The position numbers were made by a program, and so were the translations under genes. Below are positions 34,958 to 42,093 of a DNA stretch of 64,000 nucleotides, in pieces. The stretch's first letter is position 1. Every line of letters starts with the position of its first letter. The notes beneath the pieces are model-generated. The model was not told the origin of the DNA, did no database searches, and worked only from the letters and a program-made list of their open reading frames with translations. This DNA comes from Phycisphaeraceae bacterium (GTDB lineage Bacteria; Planctomycetota; Phycisphaerae; Phycisphaerales; Phycisphaeraceae): NCBI GenBank assembly GCA_963674705.1, contig OY771506.1, forward strand, positions 704,001-768,000, written 5' to 3'.

Positions 34958-36139
34958 TCATTGCGACTGTTGGCTGGATGCCCGGTCCAGCAAGGCTTGC
35001 AGAGCCCCCACATTATCGAGCCGGCCTACAACTGCCGGGGCGCCGGGCACAAAAAGTACGGGCACATAGTCCGCGCCGCTTTCCCCATAAGATAGGACGT
35101 TGCGGCTTATCCGATCTTGCATACGCGGATCGTTATAAGCTTGTTCAAAAGTTTTTTCTCCAAGCCGTCGGATTGCCTCGGCGCGGGCGTTTTTAGCGGT
35201 GCGGGGCTGCACGGGCTCGTACATCCACCGATCAAAATCCGGGTAAGCCCCGGGGTCTGCCAGGAAAAAGGCGACCGCGATCCGGGTCAATTCGCAGCTT
35301 TCCTTGAATCGCTCGTCAATATCGTCCGAGACATGAGGATTGCAGCCGTGATTCAGAGGCATGGGCAGGAGGACGACGGTAAGCCGGCCCGGGTGCTGCT
35401 CTTGATATTCCTCGACGACGCTGTGCGTGTGTCGGCAGTGCAGGCAGGCGTAATCGAGCATCATGACCATGACCTGCTTGCCGTCCGGCGGACCGAGCAG
35501 CGGTTCTTCGCTGAGGTTGAGTGTGAGTTTGCCGTCGAGGACGGTGACGGTGCGGCCAGTGGCGGTTTGTTGATCGCTGCTGTGGGTGTCGAGTGTGATG
35601 AGCATCGAACTTGTGCCCATCTGCACGAGCATCATGGCGAGGACGAGAACGAGACCGAGCACGATCGCGGGGATGCTGCGCAAACGGATGCGCCAGAACA
35701 AAAGAGGCGCGAGTATCAAACCGATCGTGTGATCGGCCATGCAATAGGGGCAGATCGCTCGAAGCGGGATGAGTTGCAGGTAGATAAACCAGATAGCGGA
35801 ACCCGCGATGACGGTGGCGAGCAGTGAGAGCACGAATCTTGCAATGTAATTTGTCTTTTCATTCGCAGAGCGTGAGAAGAACAAGGCGATGATGATGCCG
35901 ATGTAGACGCCCATCGCGAGCAGGCTGACGGGGATGCCCAGACAGTGCGAGAACTTGCTTGATAGGACTTCTGCACATCCGGAACCCGAACCACAACCTG
36001 CGGGGCTCATGCCTTTACTCATCGAGGTGTAGGACAGGTAGGCACTGATGAGTAGCGCGGTAGCCGCCAGACAAATCATGAGGATGAACTCAAAACGAGC
36101 CGGGCCCGGTTTCCGGTAGTCGTCGAAAGGATCATTCAT
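34958..36139 (-). CDS. VKOR-family disulfide oxidoreductase fused to a DsbA/thioredoxin domain
   Basis: CGSGSGCAEVLSS, ICPYC in the TM region, DYACLHC. Confidence 0.88.
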   Translation of the reverse strand: MNDPFDDYRKPGPARFEFILMICLAATALLISAYLSYTSMSKGMSPAGCGSGSGCAEVLSSKFSHCLGIPVSLLAMGVYIGIIIALFFSRSANEKTNYIARFVLSLLATVIAGSAIWFIYLQLIPLRAICPYCMADHTIGLILAPLLFWRIRLRSIPAIVLGLVLVLAMMLVQMGTSSMLITLDTHSSDQQTATGRTVTVLDGKLTLNLSEEPLLGPPDGKQVMVMMLDYACLHCRHTHSVVEEYQEQHPGRLTVVLLPMPLNHGCNPHVSDDIDERFKESCELTRIAVAFFLADPGAYPDFDRWMYEPVQPRTAKNARAEAIRRLGEKTFEQAYNDPRMQDRISRNVLSYGESGADYVPVLFVPGAPAVVGRLDNVGALQALLDRASSQQSQ

Positions 36140-36160: not shown

Positions 36161-37261
36161 TTATCGATTGTTGTTCAGCTCGTTGATTTTTTCAGCCAGC
36201 ATGTGTGTGAACACCTCGCGGCCGGCGGGATTCAGGTGCGCGTAATCGGAAAAAGCGTCGTCGGGCATGGCGTCGCGCAGGTCGATGACGAGGATGTTGC
36301 GTCCGACGCTGACTTCATCGATCAACTCGCGGAAGACATCGTTGGATTCGGGCGGCAACCAGCCGCGCAAGCTGGATGACACGGGCAGATTCACAATGAT
36401 GATCTGCTTGGGCCCGAGCGCATCAAGGTCGGCGATGAGGTCGCGGAAGGCGTCGGCGTGGCGTCCGGTGGTTGAATAGCTTTCGGCCTGGAACCAGCCG
36501 AAGCGGGACCAGCCGTTGAACTGGCGTTTGAGGTATTTTTCGGGCCGACGGTCGGGGACGTCCCTGCGTCCCAGCGGGCGCCAGGGGCGGTCTGACGGTT
36601 GGAACAAACCGACCGCGCCGCTGTCGAGTCGTTCATGCAGGGCGAGGCGTGCTTCGAAAAACGCGATGTTGGTGTGGTGGCTGATGTTGCGGCGCTGGTT
36701 GCGGACCCAGTTGTGATCCTTAAGCCAACGGTCCGGCCGCCAACTGTACTCGGAAGGTTCATTCTTTTTCGCTCGATCATCTACCGAGGCTTCCGTTTCG
36801 TCTTCTTCGAGGTCGGCTGCGCCCTGGCCGACAAGCATGGTGGCGTGCAGGCCGAGGATGATGGTGTCGGGTTGGACCTTGCTGGCGGTAAGCGTCTGGG
36901 CGTAGAGCCGGAGCTTGACGAAGCTGCTGCCGAAGCCGTTGATGAGAAGCCAGGGATGACGCGGGACAACTTCTTTTTTCAGCAGCGTCGGGTCGATGCC
37001 TCGGAGGGTGGTGGATTGCCCGAGGACGACGCCGAACGCTTCGGGGCCTTCGTTATGATGATTGCGGGTTTGCAGTTCGACGCCGGCGACGTTTTCGCCG
37101 ATGGTTTGCAACTGGACCCAGGCGATTTTCTTTTCCGGGTCGTTGAACATGGCCGGGTCGCTGCCGAACATGACGTTCAGCAGGATGTTGCAAAAGACGA
37201 ACGCGCACAGCATCCCCCCACTGACGATGAGCAGGCCGTGATATCGTTTGAAGTCAATCAT
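36161..37261 (-). CDS. DltD-like membrane-anchored SGNH-fold protein
   Basis: One N-terminal TM; VVLGQST (block I-like); FSDYAHLNPAG (DxxH); lies downstream of the MBOAT. Confidence 0.7.
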   Translation of the reverse strand: MIDFKRYHGLLIVSGGMLCAFVFCNILLNVMFGSDPAMFNDPEKKIAWVQLQTIGENVAGVELQTRNHHNEGPEAFGVVLGQSTTLRGIDPTLLKKEVVPRHPWLLINGFGSSFVKLRLYAQTLTASKVQPDTIILGLHATMLVGQGAADLEEDETEASVDDRAKKNEPSEYSWRPDRWLKDHNWVRNQRRNISHHTNIAFFEARLALHERLDSGAVGLFQPSDRPWRPLGRRDVPDRRPEKYLKRQFNGWSRFGWFQAESYSTTGRHADAFRDLIADLDALGPKQIIIVNLPVSSSLRGWLPPESNDVFRELIDEVSVGRNILVIDLRDAMPDDAFSDYAHLNPAGREVFTHMLAEKINELNNNR

Positions 37262-37272
37262 GACCGCGTCGG

Positions 37273-37404
37273 CTAAAAACCCTGATAGAAGAACGTTTCA
37301 CCCGTGCGCGAGAGCCAGTACGCGGCGACGATCATGAGGACGATCTTGATCAGCCGGTATGTCCACTGCCACCAGGTAAGTTTGATGGCTGGGTCATCAC
37401 TCAT
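37273..37404 (-). CDS. DltX-like small membrane protein, 43 aa (absent from the ORF track)
   Basis: MSDDPAIKLTWWQWTYRLIKIVLMIVAAYWLSRTGETFFYQGF*; one TM; C-terminal FFYQGF; TGATG overlap with the MBOAT stop. Confidence 0.85.
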   Translation of the reverse strand: MSDDPAIKLTWWQWTYRLIKIVLMIVAAYWLSRTGETFFYQGF

Positions 37405-38573
37405 CAGAACAACTCCTTCCAGGGGTAGCCGATGATCAGCAAGGAGAACGCGACGTATTCAAAGGTCAGGAACTGAGCGACCAGGCGGTACGTCCACTTC
37501 TGTCGGTAGGCTTTGACGCCCTTGCTGCCCAGTTTTTTTGTCAGCCAGTAGCGGTAGGTATTGGTGATGACCAGGCCCACGGCGTGCATCGCGCCCCAGA
37601 AGAAGAAGGGCCAACTGACGTTGTGCCAGAGCCCGCAGAGCAGAAACGCGACGGTGAAGGCGAAGGTCGCGATGAGCAGCGGGTGTTTGCCGCCGGTCTT
37701 GCGTGCCATGTTCAGTTGCATGGGGATGAACATGTTGCGCCTGATCCACAGGGACAGCGAGATGTGCCAGCGGTCCCAGAAGTCGATCATATTGCGGGCG
37801 ATGTAGGGTTTGTCGAAGTTTTCGGGAGTGTGGATGCCCATGAGTTTGCCGATGCCGACGGCGATGTCGCTGTAGGCGGAGAAGTCGAGGAAGAGCCAGA
37901 TGTAATGCATCTGCACTTCGAAGAGCATGTAAGGACCGGTCACGTAGAAGTCGGTCAGGAATACATGCTGGATCGTGAAGGCGACAACGAACTTCTTGAA
38001 TAGTCCCAATGCGATGCGTTCGATACCTTCCAGCGCCTGGACCGGCGTAAGCGGATCGGGCACGGACGGTTGATCGTAAAAGTCTTCGTAAGACTGGATC
38101 GGCCCGGCGGCGAGCATGTGGAACGGGAGGATGTAGTTGATCGTTGCCACGGGGTTCGGTGAAGGTCGGCCGCCCTGGTAGACGACGCGCCCGACATCGA
38201 AGATACGCAGCATCGCGTACGAATAACCGACCGCCGCCAGGATCGGATTGACCCCGCCCACGCCCAATGCTATCGAGACGTCCGGTCGCTTGTTGAACAC
38301 GAACAACACCAAGGCGATCAGCAAGCCGACGAACATCAACACCAGCCGCCAGGGCTTCGGCTGTGCGAGGATGCGCAAGCCTGACCAGATACATAACACA
38401 CCCGCCAGCACCCACAACACCTGCACGTGCAGTATGAGTGAGATGAACATGATGTTGACCGCGGCGAACACATACTGACGTGCGGTCGCCTTTGTCAGCG
38501 GCGTTAACAGCACGACCGCCAGCAGCATGGTCATCCAGAATTCTTTGGTCGCCAGGTCGATCGTTGGAATCAT
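37404..38573 (-). CDS. MBOAT-family O-acyltransferase (DltB/AlgI-like)
   Basis: AGPI, GLFKK, DFSAYSDIA, PENFDKPY, FWDRWHISLS, GLWH. Confidence 0.92.
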   Translation of the reverse strand: MIPTIDLATKEFWMTMLLAVVLLTPLTKATARQYVFAAVNIMFISLILHVQVLWVLAGVLCIWSGLRILAQPKPWRLVLMFVGLLIALVLFVFNKRPDVSIALGVGGVNPILAAVGYSYAMLRIFDVGRVVYQGGRPSPNPVATINYILPFHMLAAGPIQSYEDFYDQPSVPDPLTPVQALEGIERIALGLFKKFVVAFTIQHVFLTDFYVTGPYMLFEVQMHYIWLFLDFSAYSDIAVGIGKLMGIHTPENFDKPYIARNMIDFWDRWHISLSLWIRRNMFIPMQLNMARKTGGKHPLLIATFAFTVAFLLCGLWHNVSWPFFFWGAMHAVGLVITNTYRYWLTKKLGSKGVKAYRQKWTYRLVAQFLTFEYVAFSLLIIGYPWKELF

Positions 38574-40411
38574 CCGGGGATCGCCTCGGCGGTTTTGATG
38601 TGGGTGACAACGTTCGGCGGGTCGGACAGGTTGAGCGTGTAGACGACTGAGCCGTCCGCGTCCTCGGTTTTCCGCTTAAAGCCGAGTCGGTCGTAGAGGT
38701 CGGCTACGAGCTTGTTCTTCGCGGTAGGGATGAACTCGCCTTCAAGCGTTTTGAATCCGGCTTGCAACGCGCGCTCGAGCAGGATGCTGAACATGAACTG
38801 TTCGGATGTCCTGTTGATGACGCGGCAGCTCATGAGCCAGGTGTCGATACGCAGGGTTTGCTCATCATTCGGCACCGCGATGACGAGGGAGACGAGGCCG
38901 TGATCGCCGAACTTATCGCTTAGCCGAAGCGTCATACCGACCGCGCCTGTTTGGGCGAGCATCGCACGGACATCCTCGGCGGTGTGGCGGCGGGTGGTCA
39001 GGTTGAACTGGTTGGTCTTACCCAGCAGTTGGACGACGCGCTGCATGTCGGTTTCGTCGATGTCGCGCACATCGGCGATCATTTCCAGTGACGCGAGATA
39101 ATCATCGATCGAAGCGAACGACTGTTCGGCATCGCGGCGCTTGCGTTCGACGGCGTATTGCTCAGCCCGCTGACGATCCGCGCCGGAGACTTCGACGGCC
39201 TCGAAGTAGAGCCCCGCTTCCACCGCACGGACGTAACCGGCGGCATCCTCGGGTACTTCGACGACTTCCACTTCGGGCAACACCTGGCGGACGTGTTCGC
39301 GCTCAGCAGGGTTGTCATCAACGAAGACGAAACTATCGAGCCCGAGGCGCAGCGTCTTGGCGATGCGTTCGATGGCCAAGGGTTTGGGGTCCCAGCTTGC
39401 TTCAAACGCGGCGAAGTCGTCGAGCGTGAGGACCATGTCCGGGTGTTTGCCGAACGGTTCACGCGCATCGTCGGGGTTGTTCTTGGAGCAGACGGCCAGG
39501 ACGACGCCGCGCTCGGCTAAACCCTTGGCGTACTTCTGGAAGGAGCGGTAGGCTTCGCCATCCGCGGTTTCACCGACGGAGATGCCGAGTGGGCCGGTCT
39601 CGCCTACTACGCCGCCCCAGAGTGTGTTGTCCAGGTCGAGTACGAGCACCTTCTTCGGGCCGGTCGTCACCGCACGAAGAGCGGCGGCGAGGTGATAGCT
39701 CAGTAACGAAGTGCCTTCTTCGCTGAACGGCTGCTTGGTCCAGTGGTATCGGCGAGCATCGTAAAATTGATCACGGCCCATCTGCCCGGCGACGCGCTGA
39801 AGGTCGACGAAGTACGCGCCTTTGGGCAATGCTTCACGCAGGGCGCGGTCCATCGCACGCATCAGGCCCGTGGGCCCTTCGGGTTCGCCCGAGAGGTTGA
39901 CGCCAAACGGACCCGCATCGATACAGTCGTAACCGACCTGGATGATGCGGGCCTTGAGTTGATTGGCTGCGATCTGCCAGGCTTGTTGCCAAAAGGCTAA
40001 TTCGTCGGCAACGCGATCGGTGGGGCTGCGGTCTGCGCCGCTAAGTAATCGTTGATGCCAGGGGACGAAGACGACGGTGTCGATGCGCTCGCCCGAGGAG
40101 GCGGCGGTCAGCAGTTCCTGCATGACGTTGTCGTATTCGCCGTCGATGACGTAGGCGGACATACCCCGGCCGAGGGCTTGTGCGGCCAGGCCGTTAGCGA
40201 GCCAGGTGGTTGTGCATTGGCCGACCATCAGGACGCGGTGGACGTCGCTATTGTCTTTGAATTGTTTTTCGATGTAGCGGCCGGCCTTGTCGATCTCTTC
40301 GCCGGTGAATCCGCCAAGACGCAGCGCGGCGCGCAGCAGCTCAATGCCCTCATCGGCCTTGCCTGCTTTGCGGAGTTTCACGGCCTGCTTGATCTGGTCG
40401 GCTGGATTCAT
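38570..40411 (-). CDS. FkbH-like protein (HAD-IIIC; glyceryl-ACP loading)
   Basis: KKVLVLDLDNTLWGGVVGE, CSKN, FVDDNPAER, KTNQFNLTTRR, DKFGDHG, WLMSCRV. Confidence 0.93.
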   Translation of the reverse strand: MNPADQIKQAVKLRKAGKADEGIELLRAALRLGGFTGEEIDKAGRYIEKQFKDNSDVHRVLMVGQCTTTWLANGLAAQALGRGMSAYVIDGEYDNVMQELLTAASSGERIDTVVFVPWHQRLLSGADRSPTDRVADELAFWQQAWQIAANQLKARIIQVGYDCIDAGPFGVNLSGEPEGPTGLMRAMDRALREALPKGAYFVDLQRVAGQMGRDQFYDARRYHWTKQPFSEEGTSLLSYHLAAALRAVTTGPKKVLVLDLDNTLWGGVVGETGPLGISVGETADGEAYRSFQKYAKGLAERGVVLAVCSKNNPDDAREPFGKHPDMVLTLDDFAAFEASWDPKPLAIERIAKTLRLGLDSFVFVDDNPAEREHVRQVLPEVEVVEVPEDAAGYVRAVEAGLYFEAVEVSGADRQRAEQYAVERKRRDAEQSFASIDDYLASLEMIADVRDIDETDMQRVVQLLGKTNQFNLTTRRHTAEDVRAMLAQTGAVGMTLRLSDKFGDHGLVSLVIAVPNDEQTLRIDTWLMSCRVINRTSEQFMFSILLERALQAGFKTLEGEFIPTAKNKLVADLYDRLGFKRKTEDADGSVVYTLNLSDPPNVVTHIKTAEAIPG

Positions 40412-40428
40412 GCTTGTCTACTTACCGT

Positions 40429-41379
40429 TTACTTTTCAGAAGGAACGCAGACGTAGGCCACGTCGATCGACGGGTCCTGCTTGTTCTTGCCGTAGTCGGC
40501 GACGCGGAAAGATTTTTCGGCGACGATGTCGAAGCCCGCCTCTTTGAGCATGTCGTTGACCTGATGGCACTCGGTGAAGAGGTACAGGTGATCGATGGCG
40601 TTGGAGTTCACGACGGTCGTGGCGAACATCGGTGCGCCGGGCTTGAGGCAGCGGCACAGTTCTTTCAATGAGAACAGCGGGTCGGGCACGTGCTCGATGA
40701 TTTCGGCGAAGACGCCCCAACTCAGGGTGTTGTCTTCGTAGGGCCAGCGGACGCGTGCGTCGCCGGAGCCGAGGGTGTAGCGGTCTTTGGCGATACCGGC
40801 TTCAGCGAGCAGCTTGCCGGCGTATTCGATAGAGAATCGGCTGACGTCCAGGCTGTTGGTGCTGGTGCCGGGTTTGGCTTCGAGGATGTTCAGCAGGTAC
40901 AGGCCGTGCCCGAACCCGAACTCGCAGCCGACGCCTGAATCCGGGACGCGGGACAGGAACGCTTCGGTGAAGAAGTGGTGGATATCGAAGTGGATGGGCC
41001 AGTAGGCGTGGGTGAGCATGAGCCCTTCGAGGTAGAACTTACCCATCACGTCAGGGTTGTCGTAGACCTCTTTATAAACATCTTCGAAGTCGCTGTGGCT
41101 GTATTCCTGTGTCTGCATGAAGCGCGCCTGCTCTTTGAGGTAGGCGTAGGTGTATTCGATGAGTGAATCCATCGGCGAGCCGCCCATACGCTGGGCGAGG
41201 TCGACGAGGTGTTCGGCCTGCTGCCAGAAGGCGTCGCCGTGGGTATTGATCTGGTGTTCGGCGTGCGGGGCGAGGAGGTTGCGTGCTTTTTCCAGCAGGT
41301 CCTGTGTGAAGCGGGCGGCGATGGGGTACTTGGCCGCGGCGGATTCGATCGCTGATTGCACGTCGGTTACATGTGTCAT
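40429..41379 (-). CDS. Class I SAM-dependent methyltransferase
   Basis: EFGFGHG, EIIEHVPDP, LKPG. Confidence 0.85.
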   Translation of the reverse strand: MTHVTDVQSAIESAAAKYPIAARFTQDLLEKARNLLAPHAEHQINTHGDAFWQQAEHLVDLAQRMGGSPMDSLIEYTYAYLKEQARFMQTQEYSHSDFEDVYKEVYDNPDVMGKFYLEGLMLTHAYWPIHFDIHHFFTEAFLSRVPDSGVGCEFGFGHGLYLLNILEAKPGTSTNSLDVSRFSIEYAGKLLAEAGIAKDRYTLGSGDARVRWPYEDNTLSWGVFAEIIEHVPDPLFSLKELCRCLKPGAPMFATTVVNSNAIDHLYLFTECHQVNDMLKEAGFDIVAEKSFRVADYGKNKQDPSIDVAYVCVPSEK

Positions 41380-41413
41380 GCGTCTTACTCGTTAGATATC
41401 AGGTTCGTTTTAT

Positions 41414-41806
41414 TCAGGAAACGTTCTGCACCAACTCCACGGTAACACCCCGCGTGTAGATCGGGGAGATGAAGTTGATCAGCAGTGGGCCGGCGTCGAC
41501 GGGTTCGGATTCGAGGAGCTCAACCCCCTGCTCGTTTAACTGTTTGGCTGCCAGCACGATGTCGTCGACTTCAAACGCGACGTGGTGCAGGCCCCCCATC
41601 CCTTTATTGAATTTGGCAAGCACGCCGCCTCGCGGCACGACAAATTCGATCAGACCTCTCGGCCCTTGGGTGAAGATGCATTCCGCCTCATACGCGGGGA
41701 CGAACTGGCGCCGGCCCATCTCCAGGCCGAACAGATCGACCCACATCGTGACCAGCGACTCATCAGGGACGACGATGCCCACGTGATGCAATGCGGGATT
41801 GTTCAC
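41414..41806 (-). CDS. VOC-family protein, methylmalonyl-CoA epimerase-like
   Basis: LHHVGIVV, IEFV.P, GGLHHVAFEVDDI, VELVQ. Confidence 0.85.
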   Translation of the reverse strand: MNNPALHHVGIVVPDESLVTMWVDLFGLEMGRRQFVPAYEAECIFTQGPRGLIEFVVPRGGVLAKFNKGMGGLHHVAFEVDDIVLAAKQLNEQGVELLESEPVDAGPLLINFISPIYTRGVTVELVQNVS

Positions 41807-41850
41807 CTACCGGCACTCCTTGCCTTGGTCGCGATCCATCCATGCCCTTT

Positions 41851-42093
41851 TCAGGCCTTGGCCAGGTGCGCATCCACCAGCGACGCCAGTTCGCCGACGT
41901 CCTTGAGGCTGGCGACTTCAGTCCCGGTGAACCGCACGCCGAAGCGTTTTTCCACCGCCAGGATCAGGTTGACGTGCATCAGCGAGTCCCATTCGTCGAT
42001 GTCTTTGGCGGATGTGGAGCTTTCGATCTCCAGTTCATCATCGTCGAAGACCTCCTGGAAGACCTCGCTTAGCTGTTCTAATGTCTGACTCAC
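41851..42093 (-). CDS. Acyl carrier protein (80 aa)
   Basis: WDSL phosphopantetheine site, VEKRFGVRF; GTG start with AGGAG. Confidence 0.92.
   Translation of the reverse strand: MSQTLEQLSEVFQEVFDDDELEIESSTSAKDIDEWDSLMHVNLILAVEKRFGVRFTGTEVASLKDVGELASLVDAHLAKA

Follow-up and report, generated by a model that had tools for sequence, protein, structure and literature searches.

Which acyl group is loaded, tailored and exported by an operon that resembles the Dlt system of teichoic acid D-alanylation and has a FkbH-family protein where Dlt has the adenylating enzyme DltA? The question is raised by a locus in the genome of a Phycisphaeraceae bacterium from the phylum Planctomycetota (GenBank assembly GCA_963674705.1). 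We analyzed a window of 64,000 nucleotides, by which we mean the whole stretch from position 704,001 to 768,000 of contig OY771506.1; coordinates given without a locus name refer to it. Seven open reading frames (ORFs) on the minus strand, at nt 36161–42093, encode, in this order, an acyl carrier protein (ACP), a vicinal oxygen chelate (VOC) protein, an S-adenosylmethionine (SAM)-dependent methyltransferase (MTase), FkbH, a membrane-bound O-acyltransferase (MBOAT), a 43-residue peptide and an SGNH protein. A preliminary description of this DNA had reported seven tightly packed genes with two overlapping junctions, and this is what we find: the intergenic distances are 44, 34, 17, −4, −1 and 11 nt in gene order, FkbH and MBOAT sharing a 4-nt overlap. 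Catalytic residues are kept in the operon genes and all seven genes are present. A Phycisphaeraceae metagenome-assembled genome (L033) encodes a 98% identical FkbH in an unchanged gene order. Here and below, G000 to G010 are genomes of the genus, and L and P numbers are fetched loci. We consider it highly probable that the operon encodes a Dlt-type three-part relay fed by an FkbH-loaded ACP. The exported unit is likely a glycerate-derived acyl group, predicted to be inverted at C2, O-methylated and placed onto a cell-envelope glycan.

The probable export relay

The short, DltB-type MBOAT (nt 37404–38573, 389 residues) scores above the Pfam MBOAT cut-off and matches the DltB family TIGR04091 with an E value of 1e-52. 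Since its score of 179.6 is below the cut-off of that family (375), we refer to the protein as DltB-like rather than DltB. DltB is its only solved relative in the PDB (E 5e-31), and H317, invariant in 19/19 close homologues, aligns with the histidine of the DltB GFWHG motif. No shuttle motif is fused to the MBOAT C-terminus. The motif is found in the product of the following gene (nt 37273–37404), a DltX-like microprotein of 43 residues that ends in FFYQGF, with Tyr40 as the predicted acyl carrier. The general form of this ending, FxYxxF, is the acyl shuttle of DltX and PatA (PMC12148441), and the earlier view of the small peptide as the DltX counterpart is supported. The microprotein has no family match, and its hydrophobicity in a 19-residue window stays below the threshold of 1.6. 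Frames ending in FxYxxF are so rare in the genome (5 of 106,946 stop-to-stop frames of at least 30 codons, two of the five being this peptide and the genome's other MBOAT) that it is more than a chance ORF. Its start is preceded by GGAG and coupled to the MBOAT stop through TGATG. Residues F38, Y40, Q41 and F43 are invariant in 20/20 aligned homologues, although these were chosen by an [F/Y]xYxxF ending, which leaves F38 and Q41 as the free test. A separate motif peptide accompanies the short MBOAT in 25 of 27 loci, all 25 of which also hold an SGNH gene; the two exceptions are L036, which runs off its contig, and L064, where both matches are absent.

The last gene of the operon (nt 36161–37261) encodes a membrane-anchored protein of 366 residues, which would take the role of DltD and carry out the predicted final transfer to the acceptor. 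It has a single N-terminal hydrophobic helix (residues 10–28). At the sequence level, similarity to SGNH enzymes is weak: the match to Lipase_GDSL_2 (E 8e-5) lies below the cut-off, the same family is touched by 12 of 24 homologues, and a profile of the SGNH protein itself reaches only an E value of 0.65 among PDB sequences. Residues G81, S83, G111, D339 and H342 are nevertheless invariant in 24/24 homologues. The protein had previously been assigned to the SGNH type, and the fold is found in its predicted structure (predicted local distance difference test score, pLDDT, 87.9) by both Foldseek and VIA-align. Top matches in Foldseek are DltD structures at E 1.6e-3, just short of E 0.001. In VIA-align, the top SGNH enzyme reaches Z 14.8 (root-mean-square deviation 2.8, 172 aligned residues), and DltD gives Z 11.4 (deviation 4.6) with 232 aligned residues, the longest alignment listed. 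A metagenome scan with the single SGNH protein as query returned no relatives and was redone with the MTase alignment.

Shuttle motifs also occur in other genetic settings. The other MBOAT of the genome (L002:9613-13661) carries a fused FIYFQF motif and is followed by a gene for a 309-residue protein without a Pfam match and then by an FtsW/RodA-family gene; the MBOAT and the 309-residue protein may form a PatAB- or AlgIJ-like acetylation pair. At L032:446-3479, genes for a carbamoyltransferase, a 58-residue peptide ending in the FxYxxF motif and an SGNH protein lie in a row, with no MBOAT gene between them. This row is possibly a shuttle-type relay for carbamoyl groups, and a similar peptide is encoded at L028:12540-12680.

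The predicted loading half

The ACP (nt 41851–42093, 80 residues), the putative equivalent of DltC, matches PF00550 with 28.3 bits (cut-off 20.8) and has the predicted phosphopantetheine attachment site, Ser37, within a WDSL motif. Its gene starts with GTG, preceded by AGGAG, and one phosphopantetheinyl transferase gene of the ACPS family is present elsewhere in the genome. FkbH (nt 38570–40411) is a long form of 613 residues, with FkbH_N and HAD-IIIC/FkbH domains, and the predicted loader of glyceryl-ACP. It scores 294.6 bits against TIGR01686 (cut-off 146.65) and also matches PF21211. D259, D261 and the SKN motif are kept in 35/35 sequences; C529, which we take to be the thioester cysteine, is kept in 33/35, the two other rows being gapped there. 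This is the only FkbH of the genome, and none is found in 14 control genomes. A glyceryl unit drawn from glycolytic 1,3-bisphosphoglycerate is of the D form.

Neither the operon nor the gene on either side of it encodes an adenylating enzyme, and FkbH occupies the place of DltA, as had been proposed. Because FkbH stands in for DltA, the cargo of the operon is likely glyceryl-ACP. For the family member OzmB, a transfer from 1,3-bisphosphoglycerate via an enzyme thioester to the ACP has been described (reviewed in PMC9057759). Synthesis of a methoxymalonyl extender unit, already disfavoured in the preliminary description, was rejected since the cluster has neither the dehydrogenase pair nor a polyketide synthase (PKS). 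The operon and the window contain no PKS or nonribosomal peptide synthetase (NRPS) gene, and the four ketosynthase matches of the genome, in frames of 430–480 residues, are all more than 390 kb away, and no type I PKS was found. The N-terminal SGNH-like domain of FkbH has a cysteine in place of the SGNH serine (residues 64–68) in 27 of 35 aligned sequences. We also rejected this domain as a second catalytic SGNH unit: block I lacks the serine and no DxxH is seen.

The association of the loader with MBOATs was followed in loci fetched by FkbH alone, namely the best 80 of 593 confirmed GTDB stretches, many of them short contigs. An ACP is present in 64 of the 80, an MBOAT in 45 and both in 42; the MBOAT has a fused motif in 20 and the split form in 8. 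The loader is thus widely associated with MBOATs, and only a minority of the loci show the split, Dlt-like form. Two separate FkbH-ACP sets lie within 20 kb of each other in both L093 and L205.

The VOC protein

The VOC protein (nt 41414–41806, 130 residues) scores above the Glyoxalase_4 cut-off, and among solved structures it is closest to methylmalonyl-CoA epimerases (1jc4, E 1.7e-9). Residues H8, E54, H75 and E124, presumably the metal ligands, align with those of the solved epimerases and are invariant in 18/18 sequences; Cys43 is an additional invariant residue of the family. VOC-fold epimerases exchange the proton at C2 of thioesters; glyoxalase I works on enediolates of alpha-hydroxy thioesters. 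Glyceryl-ACP has exactly one centre, C2, of the epimerisable thioester kind. The best reading of the VOC protein is a predicted methylmalonyl-CoA-epimerase-like enzyme that inverts C2 of the ACP-bound glyceryl thioester. A housekeeping methylmalonyl-CoA epimerase was considered and rejected: no methylmalonyl-CoA mutase (PF01642) was found in 5/5 genus genomes searched (8/14 controls were positive), and the protein fails the equivalog test for TIGR03081.

P0041 encodes a fusion of the VOC protein with the MTase, and L030 one with FkbH, which assigns the VOC protein to the cytoplasmic loading step. Among 34 loci with VOC-A, as we call the family of this protein, 27 hold FkbH, ACP or MBOAT, and the remaining seven are contigs of 1.0–4.3 kb. 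A sample of 400 Alphaproteobacteria yielded one new VOC-A, which sits with FkbH, ACP and MBOAT. The distribution of VOC-A is patchy, since a sample of 150 genomes from the Phenylobacterium family showed none beyond that of the centre genome. In L030, L034, L037 and L156, the VOC protein occurs without any MTase match. The VOC-FkbH fusion of L030 is part of a polysaccharide locus (L030:3-21015) that also contains an AurF-like gene, a second small carrier-like gene and a gene for an AMP-binding enzyme.

A swappable tailoring slot

The MTase (nt 40429–41379, 316 residues) is a class I enzyme of what we call clade A and is predicted to methylate the ACP-bound unit. It scores above the cut-offs of Methyltransf_11/23/25 and has no hydrophobic helix, and its gene sits between those of ACP and FkbH. 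Fold matches of the model (pLDDT 95.6) include class I O-, N- and C-methyltransferases, none of which stands out as a relative.

Orthologues of FkbH are present in nine of ten other genus genomes and in one of 26 other genomes of the family, the latter being a distant copy. The position of the operon beside xth is kept in the eight relatives with contigs reaching it, and it is the slot between ACP and FkbH that varies among the genus genomes. Three of the ten genus genomes with the operon (G000, G004 and G005) have VOC and the clade-A MTase. The other seven (G001, G002, G006, G007, G008, G009 and G010) have an MTase of clade B and no VOC in the slot, the contig of G007 ending inside the MTase gene. 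No VOC match is found anywhere in these seven genomes, which are 76–96% complete. The two clades share 26–30% identity in relatives, the enzyme of the operon being 29% identical to its clade-B replacement, and form separate well-supported branches in a quick tree. VOC and MTase had earlier been treated as parts of the operon that should co-occur in relatives. Both are indeed found again beside the cluster, in relatives as well as in other phyla, but they are not fixed, given the different MTase and missing VOC in seven of ten genus genomes. The xth tree places G005 (A) together with G006 (B) at a support of 0.95, and G009 (B) together with G000 and G004 (A) at 0.81; the FkbH tree recovers the G005–G006 pair weakly (0.68). 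Since A and B genomes are mixed in these trees, more than one cassette switch within the genus is suggested. The genes between ACP and FkbH make up a swappable cassette.

Across the fetched loci, VOC-A is present in 28/34 clade-A loci versus 0/21 clade-B loci, or in 31/34 versus 1/21 when a second VOC type is counted too. For these counts, L003–L016, L033, L128, L129, L130, L139, L141, L224 and L145–L154 were dropped as duplicates or overlaps; L158–L200 were left out, and those with an MTase were refetched longer as L201–L223. Six clade-A loci have no VOC-A: three of them begin at the end of a contig and have the second VOC type, and one has 381 nt of upstream DNA. When three phyla were sampled evenly, with 400 genomes each, VOC-A was present with clade A in 2/2 cases and with clade B in 0/8, and 21 of 23 regions matching the MTase profile in these samples hold FkbH, ACP or MBOAT. 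Since an epimerase alone yields a mixture, one form has to be picked out further along the pathway. If the clade-A MTase is stereoselective and driven by SAM, this would explain why VOC travels with clade A and not with clade B. The best reading, judged from co-occurrence, is that the two MTase clades prefer opposite enantiomers, with VOC inverting C2 from D to L.

A more elaborate arrangement is found in Myxococcota (L210:7386-14537), with two ACPs, three MTases of the family, one of them in frame with the second VOC type, FkbH and a fused-motif MBOAT. This locus may build a doubly methylated unit.

Proposed pathway

By analogy with OzmB, FkbH would accept 1,3-bisphosphoglycerate, remove the phosphate and transfer D-glyceryl to Ser37 of the ACP. 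The VOC protein, with its epimerase-like metal site, would act as a metalloenzyme that interconverts D- and L-glyceryl thioesters via an enediolate. The clade-A MTase would then add a methyl group to a hydroxyl, probably accepting only the L form and so shifting the equilibrium. In relatives that have the clade-B MTase but lack VOC, the D form would be the product, as their co-occurrence pattern suggests. On the membrane side, the MBOAT would pass the acyl group to Tyr40 of the microprotein, from which it would move to Ser83 of the SGNH protein and on to a periplasmic acceptor; the residues and gene order are observed, and the mechanism is modelled on Dlt and PatAB.

We regard the complete scheme, in which the relay, the FkbH-loaded ACP, epimerisation, O-methylation and a glycan acceptor all hold together, as evenly poised between right and wrong. 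More tentatively, and with less than even confidence, we propose that cassette swaps switch between L-O-methylglycerate, D-O-methylglycerate and plain L-glycerate, that VOC is an epimerase for C2 of carrier-bound glyceryl and that its family explains L-glyceryl of the gellan type. Gellan carries O-linked L-glyceryl (PMC9737242). Searches for gellan genes returned nothing, and among the 120 best of 729 homologues of an alphaproteobacterial VOC protein, most of them without names, none is listed under Sphingomonas. If the proposal is correct, VOC with a clade-A MTase, a clade-B MTase alone or VOC alone would set the surface decoration, and a serotype-like stereochemical switch would exist inside one genus.

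Several observations speak against the complete scheme. The VOC protein matches methylmalonyl-CoA epimerase TIGR03081 (E 2e-16) with a score of 60.6, below the cut-off of 114.95, and the same four-ligand site also serves glyoxalases. The MTase fold is uninformative on O- versus C- versus N-methylation. The coupling counts are not independent trials, since they come from related loci that were collected with different queries. Two clade-A loci, L116 and L135, lack any VOC despite 2.6 and 0.8 kb of upstream DNA, and six VOC-A loci have FkbH and ACP without a clade-A MTase. MTases of clade D occur both with VOC (L074, L155, L218) and without it (L157, L204, L219, L220, L222), and the clade-B locus L210 has a different VOC type; stereochemical coupling is therefore no rule for the whole MTase family. 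As to the acceptor, no glycan genes lie beside the operon studied here, several relatives likewise stand alone, and L155 shows no MBOAT match in 30 kb, though the cytoplasmic cassette is present.

Some of these points would also fit a different role for VOC, which we consider unlikely though worth weighing. The relay and the loader would be the same, and VOC, rather than being a simple epimerase, would make or channel another intermediate, either an enediolate that is C-methylated by the clade-A MTase or the product of a glyoxalase-like rearrangement; the export would not be L-O-methylglyceryl. The tight coupling of VOC to clade A and the VOC-MTase fusion fit channelling. Further points in favour of this role are the score under the epimerase cut-off, the C-methyltransferases among the MTase fold matches and the additional invariant Cys43 of the VOC family. 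However, the homologous clade-B MTase occurs without VOC (0/21) and VOC occurs without an MTase match, so the two steps are separable, and the best solved relatives of VOC are epimerases.

Acceptor and remaining alternatives

Glycosyltransferase or sugar-nucleotide genes flank L030, L034, L045, L074, L111, L114, L115 and L156, the cluster of L156 being plasmid-borne. At least eight related loci have glycosyltransferase, flippase or sugar-nucleotide genes around them; all but L156 come from a scan of 38 among 135 called neighbours, which were chosen as probable glycan or cassette genes. A TagF-type glycerophosphotransferase (PF04464) has no match in the genome, which is 96.6% complete (3/14 controls matched; LtaS was not searched for). 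Glyceroyl or methylglyceroyl groups are carried by gellan, the flagellin glycan of Campylobacter jejuni and glycans of Tannerella and Vibrio.

The acyl chemistry could be as proposed and the acceptor a membrane lipid, peptidoglycan or a periplasmic or pilus glycoprotein, which we hold to be a minor possibility. It would suit the absence of flanking glycan genes from the operon here, and peptidoglycan is acylated by PatAB-type relays (PMC12148441). It would also suit the stand-alone second SGNH copy (47% identical; G000:C1:3131156-3132211, L001:10157-11242), which directly follows pilM-like genes, is present only in G000 and G004 among 19 genomes searched and could serve a second acceptor. The same applies to the Paroceanicella plasmid locus L155:12737-22302, where ACP, FkbH, MTase, VOC and a hypothetical gene lie directly before mprF and acvB. 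The related loci amid glycan genes argue against such acceptors, and peptidoglycan could be served by the separate fused-motif MBOAT beside the FtsW/RodA gene.

It is very unlikely that the unit retains its 3-phosphate or that the MTase methylates the phosphate or the acceptor instead of a glyceryl hydroxyl. The long FkbH form does bear an extra N-terminal domain, and the fold does not fix the target atom of the MTase, but the HAD phosphatase motifs are intact across the FkbH clade and the MTase, lacking a hydrophobic helix, is encoded between ACP and FkbH. Least probable of all is a small secondary metabolite, with FkbH and MBOAT acting on separate substrates: FkbH, a methyltransferase and an MBOAT do occur together with separate roles in the suomilide and varlaxin clusters (PMC10143770), but here there is no NRPS or PKS gene, the DltB-type MBOAT comes with a shuttle peptide and an SGNH gene in 25/27 loci, and the FkbH and MBOAT genes overlap.

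Genomic surroundings

The operon is flanked by xth upstream and by a gene for a VKOR-thioredoxin fusion downstream. Its GC content of 53–61% compares with 56.6% for the genome. A promoter scan found two candidates versus 3.0 expected, which is within chance. The VKOR-thioredoxin gene (nt 34958–36139) lies 21 nt downstream of the SGNH gene, is kept in L017–L020 and has no match in L021 or L024; it is probably a neighbour rather than part of the operon.

Comparison with known systems

Full-text literature searches found no description of such an operon, most subscription papers being outside their scope, and a search for FkbH together with MBOAT returned only papers on cyanobacterial peptides. 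Precedents exist for each single piece. The methoxymalonyl-ACP cassettes (OzmB/D/E/F/G; FkbG-K) share an FkbH-family loader, a dedicated ACP and a methyltransferase with the operon (PMC9057759). Unlike them, the operon has no dehydrogenase pair and no PKS, and both enzymes are longer (FkbH 613 versus 366 residues; MTase 316 residues versus 221 in OzmF). The NRPS glycerate starter module of varlaxin and suomilide (OMT-FkbH-PCP-ST) is closer in chemistry, since FkbH and a methyltransferase are proposed to give carrier-bound 2-O-methylglycerate, but this unit enters a peptide, and the passages of PMC10143770 on the module describe no epimerase, shuttle peptide or SGNH protein. In C. jejuni, cj1302, with an fkbH domain, lies beside cj1301, annotated as an epimerase, and the flagellin glycan carries dimethylglyceric acid (PMC7099621, PMC3068675). 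The likeness is one of annotation and gene neighbourhood; in C. jejuni, the group substitutes pseudaminic acid on flagellin, and the relevant passages of these papers mention no MBOAT relay. The genes for glyceroyl substitution were described as not identified in a 2017 paper (PMC5378307). The operon would suggest an origin for such so far unexplained glycerate decorations of surface polymers. With four small soluble proteins (ACP, FkbH, VOC and MTase), the question of glyceroyl origin becomes tractable in vitro, and the natural pair of clade A and clade B offers a built-in stereochemistry control.

On the export side, the O-acetylation systems PatA/PatB and AlgI/AlgJ share the acyl-Tyr shuttle motif, the SGNH partner and the diderm envelope with the operon. 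In these systems, the MBOAT itself carries the motif and acetyl-CoA serves as donor (PMC12148441), whereas in the operon the motif is in a separate gene and the predicted donor is an ACP thioester. According to the passages of the same 2025 paper on these pathways, MBOAT/SGNH pathways other than Dlt have neither a carrier protein nor a DltX-like microprotein. The operon has both, in diderm phyla and with a different loader, and its architecture contradicts the published statement that this combination is confined to Dlt. The closest likeness is to Dlt itself (DltA, DltC, DltB, DltX and DltD), with which the operon shares a carrier protein, a short MBOAT with the catalytic histidine, a separate FxYxxF microprotein and an anchored Ser-Asp-His SGNH protein. 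It differs in having FkbH in place of the adenylating DltA, in two added tailoring enzymes and in its diderm host. Since there is no DltA, the operon is not a member of Dlt, although by analogy it would work like one. On the more tentative reading given above, it would represent a second complete machine of the DltC/DltB/DltX/DltD type, one that is fed from glycolysis.

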